This document shows positions 2-37,607 of a stretch of 37,607 nucleotides of DNA, piece after piece. The first letter of the stretch is position 1; every line of letters starts with the position of its first letter. The position numbers and the translations under genes were made by a program. Where the stretch lies: IMG/VR virus record IMGVR_UViG_2636415906_000005. One strand, written 5' to 3'. This stretch comes from a virus. Lineage: Duplodnaviria > Heunggongvirae > Uroviricota > Caudoviricetes. The notes under the pieces were generated by a model, which made no database searches, was not told the DNA's origin, and saw only the letters and a list, made by a program, of their open reading frames with translations.

Positions 2-1297
2 TTAATTTTTCATTGCTTCGTTATGGGGCATGGTTGGGGCAAACTCGCTTAACTGTGTATTTAACAAAGCTACCTGTGCATTATTGTTTTCAGACATCCA
101 TTTTCCGTATACCTGAAATACCATTTGCGCATCTGCATGGCCCATCTGGTTTGCTATAAATGCCGGGTTAGCACCAGCTGTCAGCGACCAGCAGGCATAA
201 GTATGTCTCGACTGATATGATTTTCGATGGCGGAGTCCGGCACGTTTTATCGCTGCGTCCCACATCTGCCTTATTGAGTCAACGGTAAAATGGTCACCAT
301 AATTTTTTACTCTCGCTGACACTTCAGGTTGAAAAACAAAGGTGCATTTATGTTTTTCTGTTCTGCCATACTCTCTGAGGTGAACATCAATGATATGCTC
401 TTTGCTCAGTCTCGTTAATGTCATCTGACTCCGGAGAGCGTCGATTGCTGGCTTAATAAGATGAATGACCCGATTGGTTCCCGCCTGTGTTTTTGGTACC
501 GTGAAACGGTCTTTTGCTAAATTTCTCCTGATCATCATTGTTCCATTTTTCAGATCTATGTCCTCCCATCCAAGTGCACACAGCTCACCAGGGCGAACGC
601 CAGTATAAACAGAAACACACCATAAATTTTTGGCTTGCTGATTTCTGCACGCATCGATAAGACGGATGAATTCCTCCCGCGAAAGAGGATCCGGAATGGT
701 TCTTGATTCCTTTAATGGCGAGATCCCCTTAAACGGGTTATCTACCAGGTAACCGTTATCAACACCAAACTGGAACACGGCGTTAAGATTTGTCATGTAA
801 TTATTTACAGTTACAGCCGATCTCCCTGGTTGTGTAACAATATAGTTACTTTTGGGGATCTGGTATCCAGTCAGTAGCTCTTTACGAACCTCCAGTAATT
901 TTTCTTTATTAATCGATGAGGCAAGATTTTTTTCACCGATTATGCTCAGGATATTTTTGATGACGGCACGGTATGTGTTGAGTGATGTTTTTGCGACTTC
1001 AGTTTCTTTCAGTGCCAGAAATTTTTCAGCCAGTTCTTTTATGGTTAAATCTTGTCGGGCCTCACCAAATTTTTCCAGATTGCGTGAGGAGGGAAACTGT
1101 TTTGCATAGTCGAAAACACCAGTTTTTATTGCGTAACAAACAGAGGCGCGTAGCTCACCTGCAACGCGCCTGTTTTTTGCTGTGTCAGGAACCCCCAGGT
1201 TTTCCCTGACTCTTACGCCTTTATAAACAAACCAGATACGTAATTTCCCTCCATGGTTTTCCACGCCTGTCGGATATTTCATTTCAACTTCTCTCAT
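2..1297 (-). CDS. int: Phage integrase, tyrosine site-specific recombinase (lambda Int family)
   Basis: 431-aa ORF with a C-terminal catalytic region of the tyrosine recombinase type (SRHTYACW ... HADAQMVFQVYGKW) and N-terminal arm-binding-like region; sits at the prophage edge next to an excisionase-like gene. True start may be the internal Met (MKYPTGV). Confidence 0.9.
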   Translation of the reverse strand: MREVEMKYPTGVENHGGKLRIWFVYKGVRVRENLGVPDTAKNRRVAGELRASVCYAIKTGVFDYAKQFPSSRNLEKFGEARQDLTIKELAEKFLALKETEVAKTSLNTYRAVIKNILSIIGEKNLASSINKEKLLEVRKELLTGYQIPKSNYIVTQPGRSAVTVNNYMTNLNAVFQFGVDNGYLVDNPFKGISPLKESRTIPDPLSREEFIRLIDACRNQQAKNLWCVSVYTGVRPGELCALGWEDIDLKNGTMMIRRNLAKDRFTVPKTQAGTNRVIHLIKPAIDALRSQMTLTRLSKEHIIDVHLREYGRTEKHKCTFVFQPEVSARVKNYGDHFTVDSIRQMWDAAIKRAGLRHRKSYQSRHTYACWSLTAGANPAFIANQMGHADAQMVFQVYGKWMSENNNAQVALLNTQLSEFAPTMPHNEAMKN

Positions 1298-4751: not shown

Positions 4752-4809
4752 AAAAACGGCGGCAGAGCAGTCACGGAGTAAAACTGATACCGCCAAACGT
4801 CACCAGAAA
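4752..4809 (-). ncRNA. dicF: DicF small regulatory RNA (antisense regulator of ftsZ and other mRNAs) with intrinsic terminator
   Basis: Reverse complement of 4752-4809 reads TTTCTGGTGACGTTTGGCGGTATCAGTTTTACTCCGTGACTGCTCTGCCGCCGTTTTTA, matching the DicF sequence as I recall it, with a terminal GC hairpin plus U-run; immediately upstream of dicB as in Qin. Ends are approximate. Confidence 0.85.
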
Positions 4810-10679: not shown

Positions 10680-10892
10680 GATTTCACATTGGCGAGGTAA
10701 CGGTAGTTAAGTAGAATGGCTGCGGGTGCTTGAGGCTATCTGCCTCGGGCATGAACACCAACGGCAGATAGAGAAAAGCCCCAGTTAACATTACGCGTCC
10801 TGCAAGACGCTTAACATTAATCTGAGGCCAATTTCATGCTAGACACATGTAGGTTAGCCTCTTACGTGCCGAAAGGCAAGGAGAAGCAGGCT
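10680..10892 (+). promoter_or_regulatory. hok mRNA leader with overlapping mok-like frame (from 10836) and expected Sok-antisense target region
   Basis: Upstream of hokD there is an overlapping ORF starting at 10836 (MLDTCRLASYVPKGKEKQA...), the mok-like arrangement, and a 9-bp inverted repeat CTATCTGCC...GGCAGATAG typical of structured hok leaders. The Sok promoter itself was not pinpointed. Confidence 0.4.
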
Positions 10893-11048
10893 ATGAAGCA
10901 GCAAAAGGCGATGTTAATCGCCCTGATCGTCATCTGTTTAACCGTCATAGTGACGGCACTGGTAACGAGGAAAGACCTCTGCGAGGTACGAATCCGAACC
11001 GGGCAGACGGAGGTCGCTGTCTTCACAGCTTACGAACCTGAGGAGTAA
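10893..11048 (+). CDS. hokD: Hok/Gef family type I toxin HokD (RelF)
   Basis: 51-aa product MKQQKAMLIALIVICLTVIVTALVTRKDLCEVRIRTGQTEVAVFTAYEPEE, which I recognise as HokD/RelF; followed by a fold-back repeat CGAGGGAgaaaTCCCTCG and an intrinsic terminator. Confidence 0.9.
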   Translation: MKQQKAMLIALIVICLTVIVTALVTRKDLCEVRIRTGQTEVAVFTAYEPEE

Positions 11049-14260: not shown

Positions 14261-14336
14261 GGTCCTTTAGCTCAGTGGTGAGAGCGAGCGACTCATAATC
14301 GCCAGGTCGCTGGTTCAAATCCAGCAAGGGCCACCA
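14261..14336 (+). tRNA. tRNA with anticodon CAU, most similar to tRNA-Ile2 (lysidine, ileX/ileZ-like); tRNA-Met not excluded
   Basis: 76-nt cloverleaf folded by hand: acceptor GGTCCTT/AAGGGCC, D-arm TAGCTCAGTGGTGAGAGC, anticodon loop CTCATAA, T-arm GCTGG-TTCAAAT-CCAGC, 3' CCA; resembles my memory of E. coli tRNA-Ile2. Confidence 0.85.
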
Positions 14337-14398
14337 TCACAAACCGCCATGAGCTTATCAGGAAGAGCAGACGACACGATAACAGGGTTGTTGGTGGC

Positions 14399-14412
14399 GG
14401 GGGGGGGGGGGG
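14399..14412. repeat. Homopolymeric G tract (about 14 G) between the two tRNA genes
   Basis: GGCGGGGGGGGGGGGGGCGGG read directly from 14397-14416. Confidence 0.9.
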
Positions 14413-14446
14413 CGGGTCCCCGATGGCGGTCCATTATCGGTATTCA

Positions 14447-14523
14447 GCGTTGTTAGCTCAGCCGGACAGAGCAATTGCCTTCTAAGCAATCGGTCACTGG
14501 TTCGAATCCAGTACAGCGCGCCA
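14447..14523 (+). tRNA. tRNA-Arg (anticodon UCU)
   Basis: 77-nt cloverleaf: acceptor GCGTTGT/ACAGCGC, anticodon stem ATTGC/GCAAT with loop CTTCTAA, T-arm ACTGG-TTCGAAT-CCAGT, 3' GCCA. Confidence 0.85.
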
Positions 14524-14987: not shown

Positions 14988-15520
14988 ATACATATCTGGA
15001 TTATCACCTGTTACGGTAAAAAGTGATTGCTTACTGTTTTTGTGAATGGCATTGCAGCAGCCGGATAATGTCAGTGCTGGCTGACGGTGTGCTGGTGGCG
15101 GGTGTGGTGGTTGTTGCTTTCCCGTTGCTGAAAAAGAAAACGCCAGACTGTTAGCCGGGTATCAGTTAGCGGGAGAAATTTTTAAATACTTCACAATTCA
15201 GGCGGTTGACTGTTCTCTGGTTTGCGGGGAGTTTGTTAAAAGAAACTGGCATGGTGAATCCCCCTGTGCGGAGGGGCAATCAGCGAGTAGGTATATGGGA
15301 TAATCGCGGATTCAGGTGCTGGTACTGAATTCACCGGGAGGCACCCGGCACCATGCACTTCAATAGATTCTCTCCACATTATGGATATTCTTTCAGAATA
15401 TCCCACGCAGACTTTGTGTAAATGTTAACAAATGTGCGTTTTATTTGATCTGATTCGCTGTTTGAGCGTCCAAAACAACGGTATATATAATCCTTTACTA
15501 TATGACATATGTGAGGAAAA

Positions 15521-30472: not shown

Positions 30473-33400
30473 GTGAATATGGCAGTAAAGATTTCAGGTG
30501 TACTGAAAGACGGCACAGGAAAACCGGTACAGAACTGCACAATCCAGCTGAAAGCAAAACGTAACAGTACCACGGTGGTGGTGAACACGCTGGCTTCAGA
30601 AAATCCGGATGAAGCCGGGCGTTACAGTATGGACGTTGAGTACGGTCAGTACAGCGTTATTCTGTTGGTGGAAGGATTCCCGCCGTCACATGCCGGGACC
30701 ATCACAGTGTATGAAGATTCCCGACCCGGTACGCTGAATGATTTTCTCGGTGCCATGACGGAGGATGATGCCCGTCCGGAGGCACTGCGCCGTTTTGAGC
30801 TGATGGTGGAAGAGGTGGCGCGTAACGCGTCCGTGGTGGCACAGAACACGGCAGCCGCAAAGAAGTCAGCCAGTGATGCCAGCACATCTGCCAGTGAGGC
30901 GGCAACCCGTGCGACTGATGCTGCAGGCTCAGCACGCGCAGCCAGCACGTCAGCCGGACAGGCCGCGTCGTCGGCTCAGTCAGCATCTTCCAGCGCAGGA
31001 ACGGCATCAACAAAGGCCACTGAAGCATCGAAAAGTGCTGCTGCTGCAGAGTCCTCAAAAAGCGCGGCAGCTACCAGTGCCAGTGCCGCGAAAACGTCAG
31101 AAACGAATGCTGCAGCGTCACAACAATCAGCAGCCACTTCTGCATCCACCGCGACCACGAAAGCGTCAGAAGCTGCCACCTCAGCCCGGGATGCGGCGGC
31201 TTCAAAAGAGGCGGCAAAATCATCAGAAACGAACGCATCCTCGAGCGCCAGTAGCGCAGCTTCCTCGGCAACGGCGACAGCAAATTCTGCGAAGGCGGCC
31301 AAAACGTCCGAGACGAACGCCAGGTCTTCTGAAACGGCAGCGGGACAGAGTGCCTCAGCTGCGGCAGGCTCAAAAACAGCGGCTGCGTCGTCTGCCAGCG
31401 CCGCGTCAACAAGTGCCGGGCAGGCCTCAGCCAGTGCCACCGCCGCCGGAAAATCGGCAGAAAGCGCCGCATCATCCGCTTCAACAGCCACAACGAAGGC
31501 TGGCGAAGCCACTGAGCAGGCCAGCGCAGCAGCGAGGTCAGCTTCCGCAGCGAAGACATCCGAAACGAACGCGAAAGCGTCGGAAACCCGTGCAGAATCC
31601 TCAAAAACGGCTGCTGCATCGTCCGCCAGTTCGGCGGCGTCATCGGCATCATCTGCGTCTGCTTCAAAAGATGAGGCGAGCAGACAGGCATCAGCAGCGA
31701 AAGGCAGCGCCACGACGGCATCCACGAAGGCGACAGAGGCAGCTGGCAGTGCGACGGCGGCAGCTCAGAGCAAAAGTACGGCGGAATCCGCGGCAACGCG
31801 CGCTGAGACAGCGGCAAAACGGGCAGAGGATATTGCATCCGCCGTGGCGCTTGAGGATGCGAGCACGACGAAAAAGGGGATAGTACAGCTCAGCAGTGCG
31901 ACCAACAGCACTTCCGAGTCACTGGCGGCAACGCCAAAAGCCGTTAAGGCCGCGTATGACCTGGCTAACGGGAAATACACCGCACAGGATGCAACGACAG
32001 CACAGAAAGGGATAATCCAGCTAAGCAGCGCGACCAACAGCACGTCTGAAACGCTGGCGGCAACGCCAAAGGCAGTAAAATCAGCCTATGACAATGCAGA
32101 GAAACGTCTGCAGAAAGACCAGAACGGCGCTGATATACCCGATAAGGGACGCTTCCTGAACAACATTAACGCGGTCAGTAAAACAGACTTTGCTGATAAG
32201 CGTGGTATGCGTTATGTGCGGGTTAACGCTCCTGCAGGTGCAACATCTGGAAAATATTACCCTGTTGTTGTTATGCGTTCTGCTGGCTCAGTAAGCGAAC
32301 TGGCATCAAGGGTCATTATCACCACGGCAACGCGAACCGCAGGAGATCCGATGAATAACTGCGAGTTTAACGGATTTGTTATGCCTGGTGGCTGGACTGA
32401 CAGGGGGCGTTATGCTTATGGAATGTTCTGGCAATATCAAAACAATGAACGAGCCATCCACTCAATAATGATGAGTAATAAGGGCGATGATTTGCGCTCT
32501 GTGTTCTATGTTGATGGCGCTGCTTTCCCTGTTTTTGCGTTTATCGAAGATGGCCTGTCAATATCCGCACCTGGTGCTGATCTCGTTGTTAATGATACGA
32601 CCTATAAGTTTGGGGCAACAAATCCAGCGACTGAATGTATCGCGGCGGACGTTATCCTTGATTTTAAGAGTGGGCGTGGTTTTTATGAGTCTCATTCGTT
32701 AATCGTTAACGATAACTTGTCGTGCAAAAAACTTTTTGCCACAGACGAAATTGTAGCGCGTGGTGGTAATCAGATTCGAATGATAGGTGGGGAGTATGGG
32801 GCATTATGGCGTAATGATGGCGCTAAAACTTACCTGCTGCTTACCAATCAAGGTGATGTTTATGGTGGATGGAATACATTAAGACCGTTTGCTATTGATA
32901 ACGCAACCGGCGAACTGGTTATTGGAACCAAGCTGTCTGCAAGTCTGAACGGTAACGCATTGACAGCAACAAAGCTGCAAACGCCAAGACTGGTTTCTGG
33001 GGTTGAGTTTGATGGTTCCAAAGATATTACTTTAACCGCCGCGCATGTGGCTGCTTTTGCCAGAAGGGCAACGGATACATATGCCGATGCGGATGGTGGC
33101 GTTCCCTGGAATGCCGAATCAGGCGCTTACAATGTCACCCGCTCTGGCGACAGCTATATTCTGGTTAACTTCTATACCGGAGTCGGAAGTTGCCGGACCT
33201 TGCAGATGAAGGCGCATTACAGAAATGGTGGTCTGTTCTACCGTTCTTCAAGAGACGGTTATGGTTTTGAGGAAGACTGGGCAGAAGTTTATACCTCGAA
33301 AAATCTTCCACCAGAAAGCTACCCAGTCGGCGCACCAATCCCGTGGCCATCAGATACCGTTCCGTCTGGTTATGCCCTGATGCAGGGGCAGACTTTTGAC

Positions 33401-34009
33401 AAATCTGCTTACCCGAAACTTGCGGCCGCTTATCCGTCAGGCGTGATCCCTGATATGCGTGGCTGGACGATTAAGGGCAAGCCCGCCAGTGGTCGTGCCG
33501 TATTGTCTCAGGAACAGGACGGCATTAAATCGCACACCCACAGCGCCAGCGTATCCAGTACGGATTTGGGTACGAAAACCACATCATCGTTTGATTACGG
33601 CACTAAATCCACGAATAACACTGGTGCGCATACTCATAGTTTAAGTGGCAGCACGAATGCAGCTGGTAATCACAGCCATAGAGATGGCCGTCGATTTAAC
33701 CCCAGTGTTTTTAAAGATACTTATCAATATGGTTATACAAGCTCAGGTCAAAATACCTGGGGTGTACAAGGTTCAGTAGGTATGTCTACGGGGTGGTTAG
33801 CTAATACCAGTACAGATGGTAATCATAGCCACTCACTGTCCGGCACAGCAGCATCTGCAGGTGCACACGCGCATACTGTCGGTATTGGTGCTCATACGCA
33901 CTCCGTTGCGATTGGTTCACATGGACACACCATCACCGTTAACGCTGCTGGTAATGCGGAAAACACCGTCAAAAACATCGCATTTAACTATATTGTGAGG
34001 CTTGCATAA
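30473..34009 (+). CDS. stf: Side tail fiber protein (Stf-like) with long Ala/Ser-rich repeat shaft and His-rich C-terminal domain
   Basis: 1178-aa product; N-terminus [30 protein letters not shown] is tail-fiber-like; a low-complexity A/S/T/K/E shaft with recurring AAKTSETNA motifs; C-terminal GAHTHS/NHSHS repeats typical of lambda/T4 gp37-type fiber tips. Confidence 0.9.
30830..31890 (+). repeat. Degenerate tandem coding repeats (Ala/Ser-rich, recurring AAKTSETNA / SETNA(K/R)SSE units) within stf
   Basis: Repeated motif visible in the translation and the DNA; explains the several long artefactual ORFs in other frames and on the minus strand of this interval. Confidence 0.6.
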
Positions 34010-34590
34010 TGGCATTCAGAATGAGTGAACAACCACGGACCATAAAAATTTATAATCTGCTGGTCGGAACTAATGAATTTATTGGTGAAGGTGACGCATA
34101 TATTCCGCCTCATACAGGTCTGCCAGCAAACAGTACCGATATTGCACCACCAGATATTCCTGCTGGCTTTGTGGCTGTTTTCAACAGTGATGAGGCATCG
34201 TGGCATCTCGTTGAAGACCATCGGGGTAAAACGGTTTATGACGTGGCTTCCGGCGACGCGTTATTTATTTCTGAACTCGGCTCATTACCGGAAAATGTCA
34301 CCTGGTTATCCCCGGAAGGGGAGTTTCAGAAGTGGAACGGCACAGCCTGGGTGAAAGATGCAGAAGCAGAAAAACTATTCCGGATCCGGGAGGCGGAAGA
34401 AACAAAAAACAGCCTGATGCAGGCAGCGAATGAGCATATTGCGCCACTTCAGGATGCTGTAGATCTGGAAATCGCAACGGAGGAAGAAAACTCGTTGCTG
34501 GAAGCCTGGAAAAAGTATCGGGTGTTGCTGAACCGTGTTAATACAACAACTGCACCGGATATTGAATGGCCAGTAGCACCTATAGGGTAA
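34009..34590 (+). CDS. tfa: Tail fiber assembly protein (Tfa)
   Basis: 193-aa product; start overlaps the stf stop; C-terminal motif [31 protein letters not shown] is characteristic of Tfa chaperones. Confidence 0.85.
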
Positions 34591-35180
34591 ATTCGTAATG
34601 ATTACCTAAATACGTTATTCTTTTGTTCAAAAAGTGATTTTGCTATAGGTAGGGAGTATGTTCTTGGATTAAGAATAAAAAATCGCCATGAAAGAGCTTC
34701 ATGGCGAGTACATAAACGTACAAAATGTGATGAAAGTAGAGTGGCGTAAGCCACTATATTAAGATATGACAATAGCGAACAAAAGTAAATAACATTTTAT
34801 GGACGTTTAATTGTTAATTATAAAAACTAGAGTGCCCGATATTGTTTATCTTGCTTTAAAATAATGTACTCAAACCAAATTTTTGAGCTAAAAGCTCAAA
34901 TAATATAAATGCAATGATAATGTTTAATAAGACAATTAGCTTGCTTTGTATTTTCATTTCGGAATACTGTTAAGTAACTTTGATGACCCTAACAATAGAT
35001 CGGAATTTTCTTAGAGTCAATGGTCACTGTTTTTGTTTGCAAAGCAAATGTTTTGGTGGTTATAAGTTTTCCTAATATAGTCACCTATGCAACTTGTTCC
35101 GTGTGGAGATTAAAGGTTAAAATTTAATGCGAAGATGGAATTATAATATATTTTTTTATAATTAATTTAACCTTAACATC

Positions 35181-35277
35181 GTTGCTGGCGGCATGGAAGA
35201 AATATCGGGTCTTACTGATATCGTGTTGGCACTTCCTTAGTGCGGTTATCGAATGGCCAGCTGTACCTGTGGGGTAA
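35181..35277 (+). pseudogene. Remnant of an alternative tfa 3' end (degenerate duplicate)
   Basis: DNA about 70% similar by eye to tfa 34495-34590; reads ..[20 protein letters not shown] with an internal stop. Confidence 0.5.
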
Positions 35278-35949
35278 AAACTTTATATGGATGCTATTTT
35301 TATAATAGCTGGTAAAAACTGGCCGAACTGAAATTCACTGTTGATAAAAAAGATGTGTTTGAGTGTATGTCATTGTTTTCTTAATGGAATCCACTAGAAT
35401 GCAGCGAATTTAAGAAGGTGGGTTTTTATTGGAATATAAACTACAATAATGCTCAACTCGTTCGTAGAATTGTTTTTTCTTATTTCTTGGAATGCTAACC
35501 ATTATATGCATTATGGGGGCGATACTTCCTGATAATTTACATGATGCATACATTGAAGCAATAAATTCAATATCATTGTCATCAAAGTTAAAGCTTTCTC
35601 CGTCCATTTCAATTCCTTATGTGTTTGGCACAACTGATGCTGTATCCCATGAGAATTTATGCAAGTTGTTATGTTTGATTTGATATTGCAATGATAATTG
35701 TAGCTAATTGTTTTCAATTGAGTGAAAGTTTATTTCGAGTGATTAAGTCGAAAAAAAAGATTTCTCACGGTTAGTAAGCATATTAGGTCAGTATTCAGAT
35801 ATGAATGGTATTAATGACTAAATTTTCAATCATATATGGATTTTTATGCTGATGAAGATGTTTTATTTGGCGATTCGTCAAGCATCTTCACTTAAGTAAT
35901 CGTATATTTTAAGAGTGCAAAAGAGAAAGGGACAACGTTGCTCGCACTC

Positions 35950-36035
35950 TGGATTAAATATAGGGTGTTGTTAAACTGCGTTGATACATAATTGTACCGG
36001 ATATTGAGTGGTCTGAAGTCCCAGTCATTAAGTAA
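35950..36035 (+). pseudogene. Second degenerate tfa 3'-end remnant
   Basis: CTGGATTAAATATAGGGTGTTGTTAAACTGCGTTGATACATAATTGTACCGGATATTGAGTGG resembles the tfa C-terminal coding sequence; the motif CTTAAGTAATCG also recurs near 35890. Confidence 0.45.
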
Positions 36036-36323
36036 TCGTTTCGTGATATGCCGCAGAAACGTTGTATGCAATAACGTTCTGCGGTTGGCTGATGCACTTT
36101 CGAGAGTGTATTGAATAATTTCAAGCCGTTATTGTTTTTACGCGTAACACCATGAAAAGACTGCTTATCTGTTGGGGTGTTTTTTGGGGCATATATGGGA
36201 CAGAAATAGGCCACAGATAGATAGTAAGATCGAACTCAGGATGCTTTTGAAAAAATGTAACTATCTGAAAAAACCTAGAAAGCGCCAAGGAAACCACAGA
36301 ATGAGAAAAAACATCTGTGAATT

Positions 36324-37607
36324 ATGGATTTCCAGTTATATTCGCTCGGCGCAGCGTTAGTGTTTCATGAAATATTTTTTCCTGAATCATCAACGGCAAT
36401 GGCGTTAATTTTGGCAATGGGAACCTACGGTGCAGGTTATGTGGCGCGTATTGTCGGAGCATTTATTTTCGGCAAAATGGGCGACAGAATAGGGCGTAAA
36501 AAAGTGCTCTTTATTACCATCACCATGATGGGGATCTGTACCACCTTAATTGGTGTGTTACCGACCTATGCACAGATTGGTGTTTTTGCCCCCATCTTGC
36601 TGGTGACGCTGCGTATTATTCAGGGGTTGGGTGCAGGTGCGGAAATTTCCGGTGCCGGTACGATGCTGGCGGAATATGCACCAAAAGGTAAGCGCGGAAT
36701 TATCTCCTCATTTGTAGCTATGGGAACTAACTGCGGAACCTTGAGCGCAACGGCAATCTGGGCCTTTATGTTCTTCATTCTCAGTAAAGAGGAACTGCTG
36801 GCGTGGGGATGGCGTATACCGTTCCTGGCGAGCGTTGTCGTGATGGTCTTTGCTATCTGGTTACGTATGAATCTGAAAGAAAGCCCGGTCTTTGAGAAGG
36901 TTAATGACAGCAACCAACCCACAGCAAAACCTGCACCTGCTGGTAGCATGTTCCAGAGCAAATCCTTCTGGCTGGCAACAGGGCTGCGTTTTGGTCAGGC
37001 GGGTAACTCCGGGTTAATTCAGACTTTCCTTGCAGGCTATTTAGTGCAGACGTTATTGTTTAACAAAGCAATTCCAACAGATGCATTGATGATTAGTTCG
37101 ATTCTCGGCTTTATGACCATTCCGTTCCTTGGTTGGTTATCCGATAAAATTGGTCGCCGGATCCCGTATATTATTATGAATACCTCCGCGATTGTGCTGG
37201 CATGGCCAATGCTTTCTATCATTGTAGATAAAAGCTATGCCCCGAGCACCATTATGGTTGCACTGATTGTGATTCATAACTGTGCGGTGCTGGGATTATT
37301 TGCTCTGGAAAACATTACCATGGCAGAAATGTTCGGCTGTAAAAACCGCTTTACCCGGATGGCTATTTCTAAAGAAATTGGTGGTCTTATCGCTTCCGGT
37401 TTTGGTCCTATCCTGGCGGGTATTTTCTGCACCATGACGGAATCCTGGTATCCGATCGCCATTATGATCATGGCATATTCAGTAATTGGTTTAATCTCTG
37501 CGCTGAAAATGCCAGAGGTGAAAGACCGTGATTTAAGTGCGCTGGAAGACGCTGCGGAAGATCAACCGCGTGTTGTAAGAGCTGCGCAACCTTCCAGAAG
37601 TCTGTAA
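36324..37607 (+). CDS. ydfJ: MFS metabolite:H+ symporter YdfJ (host gene; 5' part disrupted by prophage insertion)
   Basis: 427-aa ORF with the MFS motif GKMGDRIGRKKV and multiple transmembrane segments, matching my recollection of E. coli YdfJ. Only about 50 aa precede the TM2-TM3 loop motif, implying loss of TM1. The ORF ends at the window end. Confidence 0.85.
   Translation: MDFQLYSLGAALVFHEIFFPESSTAMALILAMGTYGAGYVARIVGAFIFGKMGDRIGRKKVLFITITMMGICTTLIGVLPTYAQIGVFAPILLVTLRIIQGLGAGAEISGAGTMLAEYAPKGKRGIISSFVAMGTNCGTLSATAIWAFMFFILSKEELLAWGWRIPFLASVVVMVFAIWLRMNLKESPVFEKVNDSNQPTAKPAPAGSMFQSKSFWLATGLRFGQAGNSGLIQTFLAGYLVQTLLFNKAIPTDALMISSILGFMTIPFLGWLSDKIGRRIPYIIMNTSAIVLAWPMLSIIVDKSYAPSTIMVALIVIHNCAVLGLFALENITMAEMFGCKNRFTRMAISKEIGGLIASGFGPILAGIFCTMTESWYPIAIMIMAYSVIGLISALKMPEVKDRDLSALEDAAEDQPRVVRAAQPSRSL

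Follow-up and report, generated by a model that had tools for sequence, protein, structure and literature searches.

On its sequence, the segment between tfa and ydfJ (34591-36332 of the window, by which we mean the whole 37,607-nt stretch of DNA that was analysed) is very probably an ordinary accessory, 'b-region-like' slot that runs from tfa to attP in a Qin-family lambdoid prophage inserted in ydfJ, seen here in its integrated state and built as a three-layer mosaic that carries scars of tfa 3'-ends. Its AT-rich patchwork DNA is common to other lambda-like phages, and the two old tfa ends within it seem to mark joins; the slot reads as an ordinary mosaic scar and not as the remains of a DNA-inversion switch, for which the initial annotation had taken it. 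The slot is only 1.7 kb long here and nearly gene-free, and its AT-richness, noted from the start, was confirmed, with a GC content of 29-36% across ~34500-36000 vs ~44-56% in the flanks. When 34591-36323 was scanned in six frames with Pfam for other decayed genes, only Caudo_TAP (PF02413) was matched, and Rfam gave only sub-threshold IS009 matches on the two tfa remnants over the region. The full arrangement from tfa to ydfJ was present in 577 of 5426 complete E. coli genomes, and because these 577 copies are near-identical, selection cannot be read from them. The features of the slot are collected in Table 1.

Table 1. Features of the tfa-ydfJ slot and its borders (window positions)
Feature	Position	Strand	Basis or remark
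tfa, tail fibre assembly gene, intact, 193 aa, Caudo_TAP	34009..34590	+	ORF; Pfam PF02413, E 1e-43; annotated tfaQ in identical genomes
segA, AT-rich accessory segment directly 3' of tfa	34591..35178	.	homology to phages and prophages
Intrinsic-terminator-like hairpin, strong, 11-bp stem and T run	34683..34707	-	sole perfect 9-10-mer hairpin of the region
Candidate YncL-like small membrane protein gene, 33 aa (MKIQSKLIVLLNIIIAFILFELLAQKFGLSTLF)	34856..34957	-	promoter-like site 35020-34992
Imperfect inverted repeat	35113..35175	.	perfect 9-bp arms, imperfect extension
Remnant 1 (rem1), pseudogene fragment with a broken frame, from the final 100 nt of an older tfa	35179..35278	+	blast and Pfam
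segB, second AT-rich accessory segment, with 65-aa orphan ORF 35410-35607 (-)	35279..35888	.	
Remnant 2 (rem2), last ~120-147 nt of a lambda-type tfa, internal stop	35889..36035 (left limit uncertain between 35889 and 35917)	+	
Post-tfa linker with 12-13 bp hairpin (36050-36086)	36036..36142	+	alignment with lambda
attR phage arm (P-arm equivalent of attP)	36051..36321	.	common to K-12 Qin
attR core, prophage/ydfJ junction	36322..36332	.	attL match and K-12 comparison
Host ydfJ, 3' part	36333..37607	+	first 28 codons beyond attL

The right end of the slot could be fixed at the junction with ydfJ, where the right attachment site had been expected from the outset. The core TTATGGATTTC recurs as the same 11-mer at attL in strain ACN002, 37 nt to the left of window position 1, and agrees with a comparison of attL and attR in K-12 and with the annotated boundary of K-12 Qin. 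Everything by which a lambdoid attR is recognised was found, that is, a core at both ends, a tyrosine integrase beside attL (window 2-1297) and an empty site elsewhere. The reconstructed empty site, an uninterrupted rspB-ydfJ without any of the region, is intact in 2010 of the 5426 genomes, which identifies the region as prophage and not host DNA; the junction with ydfJ is the core at 36322-36332. An attachment arm of the K-12 type lies beside ydfJ in ~2100 genomes (~87% identity); counted by occupant, the slot is of the K-12 type in ~2100 genomes vs ~570 with the present type.

Two direct copies of the tfa 3'-end lie downstream of the intact gene, as had been proposed; both are real and stand well above chance, and only the extent of the second had to be revised, to ~35889-36035, which is longer than first given. 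Remnant 1 aligns with tfa 34492-34591 on the same strand (72% over 101 nt, E 4e-13 within the region), and its translation ends ...IEWPAVPVG after a frame that is broken midway by an indel. By blastn, positions 35889-36018 of remnant 2 align with tfa 34445-34576 (69% over 132 nt, E 3e-15), and positions 35916-36035 align on the same strand with the tfa of phage lambda (74%, E 4e-18); a 12-nt exact repeat, TTAAGTAATCGT, stands at both edges of this remnant (35892 and 36028), but with an estimated ~0.3 such repeats expected by chance it is given no meaning here. In translation the two remnants match Tfa residues 162-193 and 156-192 and Caudo_TAP positions 95-130. As a pseudogene fragment of tfa (PF02413) we counted a sequence with significant C-terminal Tfa similarity, a missing N-terminal domain and frame damage, and all three were seen in both remnants, which are very probably dead pseudogene scars with no present role in fibre switching. 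The block that recurs is the last ~100-175 nt of tfa, coding for the conserved C-terminal domain, and in six independent contexts, some of them with fibres that have an S74 intramolecular chaperone and no tfa gene, the remnant always comprised the terminal 100-175 nt and started at tfa nt 409-480. Tfa proteins are conserved in their C-terminal trimerisation domain and variable in their N-terminal domain (PMC9608196).

Each layer of the slot also occurs independently elsewhere. Many phages and prophages of the lambdoid group carry segA immediately 3' of tfa or of one of its remnants; the segment was found in 830 genomes, with up to four copies per genome. It is 95-97% identical at two prophage loci (L004 and L005) and in phages ev099, mEp332 and PhiR70_1, where it runs on to an AraC-family regulator, and 89% identical upstream of sitABCD (L018). 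The combination of tfa or a tfa remnant with segA is thus carried by three viable phages (ev099, mEp332 and PhiR70_1) as well as by prophages near paoD, zinT and sitABCD, and the DNA beyond segA differs in each. Here segA is cut at ~35169 and joined to remnant 1, and over its last ~100 nt (35070-35178) the allele is divergent. In layout it resembles a promoter-gene-terminator unit, with a predicted promoter site of a kind no commoner here than in shuffles, the 33-aa ORF and the terminator-like hairpin all read leftward, and the small leftward ORFs of the slot may be expressed; the hairpin, a predicted terminator for leftward transcripts, would keep cargo transcription from entering tfa antisense. 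A moron has its own promoter and terminator around a gene that is dispensable for phage growth and is expressed from the prophage, and the segA unit may be compared with a moron as known from the established phage literature. The 33-aa ORF is intact in seven contexts and without annotation in every copy examined. It is 39% identical to K-12 YncL (E 2e-7) and scores 25 bits (E 1.3e-5) against the NCBIfam YncL model (NF000537), below the curated cutoff of 35 bits for membership of that family, and we therefore call it YncL-like and not an equivalog. A tblastn comparison of this ORF with phages gave no match, presumably owing to low-complexity masking.

The second accessory segment, segB, was found in 602 genomes and is ~80% identical to DNA downstream of tfa in a prophage at the prfC site, in which the 65-aa ORF is intact and an intact tfa occupies the position of remnant 1. 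Window 35179-36142 has a colinear counterpart in the YPE10 copy of this prophage, which is made up of an intact tfa, segB, remnant 2 and the hairpin and is 81% identical. This identity varies widely along the unit, from 53-72% on its left to 83-95% on its right, suggesting a history of more than three layers. At locus L003 the position orthologous to remnant 1 holds the 3'-end of an intact tfa, and remnant 2 follows segB there and also stands ahead of sitABCD at locus L014. Homologues of the 65-aa ORF were seen in E. coli only, many of them truncated, and the ORF had no match in Pfam, PHROG or the phage collection; its likeness to GlgS was rejected as a sub-threshold, chance-level score (NCBIfam 14 bits vs a cutoff of 105). 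Further to the right, remnant 2 and the hairpin align base for base with the tfa end of lambda and the DNA downstream of it, and it is at the hairpin that the arm of K-12 Qin sets in. The linker (RNA fold z -2.8) thus lies 3' of lambda's own tfa as well, and is common to K-12 Qin, the prfC-site prophage and the sit-carrying prophage.

These homologies suggest that the slot consists of three layers, each opening with the conserved tfa 3' block. The oldest, in the order of events that we infer, would be a lambda-type tfa end (remnant 2) with the hairpin that natively follows it and the attachment arm of Qin; another would comprise the tfa end of remnant 1 with segB, and another the functional stf-tfa pair with segA, including the YncL-like small gene, its promoter-like site and the terminator. 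Tail-fibre and cargo modules may have arrived from other lambdoid phages by recombination, the right-hand joint of each arrival falling at or just inside the C-terminal-domain block of the resident tfa, so that the last 100-150 nt would have stayed behind. The individual joints may have been illegitimate or homology-assisted, and because random illegitimate events would hardly have placed two right-hand joints within the final 150 nt of tfa, a homology-guided or selected process must have contributed. The 'cassette exchange' that had been offered beside inversion holds only loosely, as mosaic exchange of modules by general or illegitimate recombination.

The inversion reading itself would make the remnants alternative tfa cassettes that have decayed and the inverted repeat what is left of a crossover site, in a Pin/Gin-type system whose invertase has been lost. 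It is suggested by the position of pinQ directly 3' of tfaQ in Qin prophages of the K-12 type, which occupy the same att site, and by the frequency of tail-fibre inversion systems in related elements such as e14. An invertible segment would have an adjacent serine invertase, an inverted pair of ~26-bp crossover sites with the core AAACC-NN-GGTTT, one of them inside the fibre gene, and an inverted alternative fibre C-terminus with tfa, and none of the three was found here. That no invertase gene is present had been stated correctly, since tblastn with K-12 PinQ over the whole window gave a best E of 1.7 and no serine invertase, intact or as a pseudogene, and the six-frame scan of 34591-36323 gave no resolvase domain. 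Searches by tblastn with PinQ, YdfK, YnfT and the Stf C-terminus found nothing, neither remains of the three K-12 genes nor a stf C-terminus in inverted orientation, and minus-strand matches to the C-termini of Tfa or Stf were absent; both remnants lie directly, on the + strand, and are not inverted. The three consensus scans for crossover sites were empty, with no match to the core in the stf-attR region and a single, chance-level match in the window (29088), and with 0 matches to the full gix/hix-like and pix-like consensus at up to 3 mismatches, whereas the identical scan recovered both pix sites of e14. One arm in stf (32551) and another at the tfa end (34556) form a 17-nt inverted repeat that was judged to be due to chance. 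The imperfect inverted repeat noted at the outset is physically present, with arms AAGGTTAAA (35113-35121) and TTTAACCTT (35166-35174), but carries no significance: its fold has a z of -1.3, with 23 of 200 shuffles folding equally well, and the observed count of 9-mer inverted repeats at most 60 nt apart in the region was reached by 13% of dinucleotide shuffles. Moreover, its right arm crosses the segA/remnant-1 joint, and both arms are absent from six other, mutually consistent copies of the segment, so that the repeat is allele-specific. It does not rise above what chance yields in AT-rich DNA.

Comparison with known elements leads in the same direction. K-12 Qin (tfaQ-pinQ-ydfK-ynfT-arm-ydfJ') has the same integration site, core and arm from hairpin to core (36051-36332), and its tfa is 94% identical, whereas the 1.45 kb from the tfa stop to the hairpin is wholly non-homologous and homology restarts only at 36051; the pinQ-ydfK-ynfT block, which shows no homology to 34591-36050, is an alternative occupant of the slot and not the ancestor of a decayed copy here. 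Even K-12-type elements are without inverted repeats or pix-like sites from stf to pinQ, and because K-12 Qin itself is empty in the crossover-site scans, its pinQ looks orphan. In e14 the alternative tfa copies (tfaP, tfaE) converge, whereas the copies here are direct. The slot resembles the Pin/Gin/Cin/Hin segments (e14 P, Mu G, P1 C) in having multiple tfa-related sequences downstream of a fibre gene, and in the presence of pin in the K-12-type Qin slot, but every defining feature of these segments is absent here, and every unit of the slot was seen elsewhere as ordinary cargo that follows an intact tfa and has no invertase near it. The Pin/Gin reading is thus already largely refuted, and we hold it to be highly improbable.

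Three direct copies, spaced by 687 and 756 nt, might also arise by local tandem duplication of the tfa 3'-end and its downstream DNA within the prophage, followed by decay. This has already been refuted, because the spacers (segA, segB and the arm) share only short chance matches; moreover, the three tfa ends are of different allele types, remnant 2 being lambda-type and accompanied by lambda's downstream hairpin, and the units occur separately in other phages, which leaves tandem duplication scarcely credible. It is almost as improbable that the remnants are kept as functional RNA elements, be it as sRNAs of the Rfam 'IS009' family or as 3'-UTR or terminator modules. Both give weak IS009 covariance-model matches (40.8 and 30.1 bits), and remnant 2 is well conserved between two prophage lineages, yet these scores are far under the gathering score of 117 and a promoter-like site on the + strand is absent ahead of either remnant. 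The full-scoring IS009 matches all fall inside tfa coding sequence (window 34352-34550, tfaD, tfaQ and lambda tfa), hence the model merely describes conserved tfa coding DNA.

Less improbable than these, though still doubtful, is a view that refines the mosaic explanation and does not oppose it, in which cargo cassettes carry homology arms and are copied by a homologous double crossover driven by RecA or Red. The left arm would be stf/tfa, and the distal tfa 3' block would be the right arm and recombine with the 3'-end of the resident tfa, thus leaving tfa intact and regenerating a remnant every time. This would fit the tfa 3' blocks on both sides of every cargo unit here, the conserved block that remnants always span, the identical segB/remnant-2 joint at two att sites with differing DNA beyond, and the viable phage PhiR26_1 with its tfa-ybcY-tfa' order. 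Moreover, between two prophages remnant 2 and the hairpin are 88-95% identical vs 53-72% for the left part of the unit, as a repeatedly recombining arm predicts. On the other hand, segA mostly lacks a distal tfa block in other contexts, and the present repeats, 72-83% identical with exact runs of at most 13 nt, are too diverged for recombination now. Equally tentative is the wider proposal that the tfa 3' block and the post-tfa hairpin serve as a universal homology 'docking arm' for cargo among unrelated lambdoid phages, with tfa never inactivated.

The closest parallel to the mosaic slot is DLP12 of K-12 (tfaD-ybcY-tfaX-appY-ompT), which has an intact form in phage PhiR26_1 (tfa-ybcY-tfa'-...-ompT). 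In each case tfa is followed by opposite-strand cargo, a direct 3' tfa fragment (~150-190 nt) and further cargo, at the same place, the end of the lambdoid late operon. The cargo there is ybcY, appY and ompT vs the YncL-like ORF and the 65-aa orphan here, and the single remnant there contrasts with two stacked ones here, which are more decayed and unannotated. In phage lambda the same slot is filled by the b region, the accessory DNA that separates tfa from attP; the lambda tfa end and the next ~50 nt are orthologous to remnant 2 with its hairpin, and leftward cargo transcription converges on tfa in lambda as it is predicted to do here. Unlike the slot described here, that of lambda contains large ea genes and is free of tfa remnants.

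Taken alone, the slot is of little importance. Its analysis corrects a tempting misreading as the fossil of an inversion switch and annotates 1.7 kb that is nearly blank in the current annotation of hundreds of E. coli genomes, now with two tfa fragments, an attR core and arm, and a linker. It also points to recurrent mosaic boundaries, namely the stop codon of tfa, the point where its conserved C-terminal block begins and the hairpin that follows the gene, at which lambdoid phages exchange host-range modules as well as cargo (sitABCD, AraC-type regulators, ompT and small membrane proteins). If the idea of homology arms is true, these boundaries would belong to a cassette system that moves lysogenic-conversion genes by recombination, of which the stacked remnants would be the footprint, and this would account for the accumulation of conversion genes at a single spot.

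The window is a Qin-family lambdoid prophage, with DicF, sok, STnc100 and two tRNAs in its early and middle regions, and its late operon ends with gpJ, lom, a side tail fibre gene (1178 aa, 30473-34009) and the tail fibre assembly gene tfa (34009-34590). Over ∼34500-36000 GC falls to 29-36%, and the slot between tfa and the attachment site attR is annotated today with a single 'hypothetical protein'. E. coli ACN002 and other strains carry the region with 100% identity, and at least 80% of its length was found in 577 of 5426 complete genomes, adjoining ydfJ in all 30 records listed. Within the fibre gene, an Ala/Ser/Thr-rich low-complexity stretch of >1 kb (30750-32100; GC ∼62%, strong AT skew) creates long spurious ORFs both antisense and in the alternative frames.

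The two tfa 3'-end remnants reported in the initial annotation are real. Remnant 1 (35179-35278) shares 72% identity with the last 100 nt of tfa (E 4e-13). Remnant 2 is genuine but had been drawn too short at 35950-36035; its alignment runs through 36035 from either 35889 (blastn with the resident tfa, E 3e-15) or 35916 (with lambda tfa, 74%, E 4e-18). Both lie on the strand of tfa, remnant 1 is damaged by an indel and remnant 2 by an in-frame stop, and scanning all six frames of the entire interval against Pfam gave Caudo_TAP as the sole match. An inverted repeat noted beside them is present, its perfect 9-mer arms lying at 35113 and at 35166, but is nothing special: its fold z-score is -1.3, 9-mer inverted repeats were as numerous in 13% of shuffles of the region, and both arms are absent from six other, mutually consistent copies of the segment. 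Its right arm spans the joint with remnant 1.

From these features a fossil of a Pin/Gin-type invertible region had been proposed, and this reading was not supported, although the underlying observations were largely correct. In the genuine Pin system of e14, two tfa genes are convergent and 21-bp inverted pix sites (core AAACC-NN-GGTTT) lie within both fibre genes beside pinE, whereas the remnants here have the same direction as tfa. The crossover-site scans that recover the e14 sites found nothing comparable in the window, nor was there any trace in it of PinQ, YdfK, YnfT or an inverted fibre C-terminus. In K-12-type Qin, pinQ-ydfK-ynfT sits between tfaQ and a post-tfa hairpin; this block has zero homology to 34591-36050, so the same slot has been filled by two different stretches of DNA, and that of the window is not a decayed form of the K-12 block. 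K-12-type Qin elements contain neither inverted repeats nor pix-like sites between stf and pinQ, and in two with full-length stf (L012 and L013) pinQ is directly 3' of tfaQ and an inverted alternative cassette is absent. Hence ∼2100 genomes appear to carry pinQ as an orphan invertase.

Pairwise comparisons resolved three mosaic layers, each headed by a tfa 3' block. Layer A, tfa plus the AT-rich segment segA (34591 to ∼35169), is 95-97% identical to post-tfa DNA in prophages near paoD (L004) and zinT (L005) and in phages ev099, mEp332 and PhiR70_1, and in most of these matches segA continues into an AraC-family regulator. In strain A20 an 89% copy lies between a tfa remnant and sitABCD. Of 5426 E. 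coli genomes, 830 contain segA, with up to four copies each. The last ∼100 nt of segA (35070-35178) differ densely from six other copies, which match each other, and over the remainder five of the six show 95-99% identity; this pattern points to an extra hidden joint near 35070. Layer B (35179-36142) runs colinear with the YPE10 prophage adjoining prfC (81% overall), which has an intact tfa at the position of remnant 1 and then, in order, the second AT-rich segment segB, remnant 2 and the hairpin as here, and dinI. The match of layer C to lambda is base for base over remnant 2 and ∼50 nt beyond it, which correspond to the end of lambda tfa and its downstream hairpin, and the sequence from the hairpin (36051) to the attachment core is the K-12 Qin attachment arm, found at ∼87% identity in ∼2100 genomes. 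The hairpin block 36036-36142 may be a late-operon terminator or linker; it recurs in lambda, in K-12 Qin, in the prfC-site prophage and in a prophage that carries sitABCD, and the neighbouring DNA differs on one or both sides.

The distal position proposed for attR was confirmed. In ACN002, attL runs through GCGCTTGAATTTATGGATTTC into AAGAGTC and attR through TCTGTGAATTATGGATTTC into CAGTTAT, with the common core TTATGGATTTC at window 36322-36332; K-12 attL and attR agree, and the annotated K-12 Qin boundary is at the equivalent base. The phage arm of the site is 36051-36321. An empty site was rebuilt by joining the ydfJ 5' fragment to the ydfJ of the window. A match to at least 80% of this reconstruction is present in 2010 genomes, and among the examples listed, those in a single piece have rspB directly adjoining full-length ydfJ; therefore none of the AT-rich DNA of the slot is host DNA. 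Immediately left of the core, an inverted repeat CACAGAAT...CATCTGTG (36296-36319) has the K-12 counterpart CACAGGAT...CACCTGTG, with both arms altered together, and is possibly a binding site for a recombinase or accessory protein.

Coordinates of features in the window and in comparison loci
Feature	Sequence	Coordinates	Strand
Tyrosine integrase	window	2-1297	-
DicF	window	4757-4808	-
sok antitoxin RNA	window	10724-10898	+
Two tRNA genes, then STnc100	window	14261-14520, 15220-15410	+
IS009 match	window	34352-34550	
Predicted strong leftward terminator	window, segA	34707-34683	
Candidate 33-aa hydrophobic ORF, promoter-like site upstream	window, segA	34957-34856	-
Predicted 65-aa orphan ORF (RefSeq 'hypothetical protein')	window, segB	35410-35607	-
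Host ydfJ, 3' part	window	from 36324	
IS009 match (tfaD)	L007	5857-6055	
IS009 match (tfaQ)	L002	5345-5543	
IS009 match (lambda tfa)	L009	2953-3151	
tfa 3' fragment after non-tfa fibre	L005	4854-4996	
tfa 3' fragment after non-tfa fibre	L010	4001-4143	
tfa 3' fragment after non-tfa fibre	L018	3821-3979	
tfa 3' fragment after non-tfa fibre	L014	3971-4101	

The 33-aa ORF is open in 7/7 copies examined, and its predicted product is a YncL-like small membrane protein (39% identity to K-12 YncL; NCBIfam E 1.3e-5, with a score below the cutoff). With its promoter-like site and terminator it forms a predicted minus-strand unit (34683-35020) that is conserved directly 3' of tfa across many lambdoid phages and prophages, and is unannotated in every copy examined. 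The 65-aa ORF had no meaningful family match; its frame is kept in a copy at ∼79% nucleotide identity, and its homologues, many truncated, are restricted to E. coli. Full-scoring matches to the Rfam 'sRNA' family IS009 (RF02111) all lie inside tfa coding sequence, and what this family describes appears to be the conserved 3' part of tfa, not an independent RNA gene.

Fragments of the tfa 3' end were found in six independent contexts: DLP12 tfaX, the tfa-ybcY-tfa' of phage PhiR26_1, directly 3' of an S74-type fibre without a tfa gene (L005 and PhiR70_1), ahead of sitABCD (L014 and L018), YPE10, and the window itself. In 6/6 the fragment starts at tfa nt 409-480 and ends at the stop codon. According to PMC9608196, which reports North et al. 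(2019), this stretch encodes a C-terminal helical trimerisation domain conserved across Tfa proteins, and the N-terminal fibre-binding domain is variable. Mosaic boundaries therefore recur at this conserved block, at the tfa stop codon and at the post-tfa hairpin. Clusters with S74 intramolecular-chaperone fibres or other non-tfa fibres still carry a 120-160-nt tfa 3' fragment, followed by cargo (segA, sitABCD).

The best reading is that tail-fibre/cargo modules would have been acquired one after another from other lambdoid phages, with each right-hand joint at or near the resident conserved tfa block, which would be left as a scar. The joints could have been illegitimate, or could have spread later by homologous double crossovers with the distal tfa block as an arm. 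Identity to YPE10 is very uneven (53-72% on the left versus 88-95% across remnant 2 plus the hairpin), which hints at the latter, although no presence/absence polymorphisms with breakpoints inside the block were found and the repeats in their current state have diverged too far for recombination. The slot is a mosaic accessory region of an ordinary and widespread kind that bears pseudogene scars, and its closest described parallel is the K-12 DLP12 tfaD-ybcY-tfaX arrangement.
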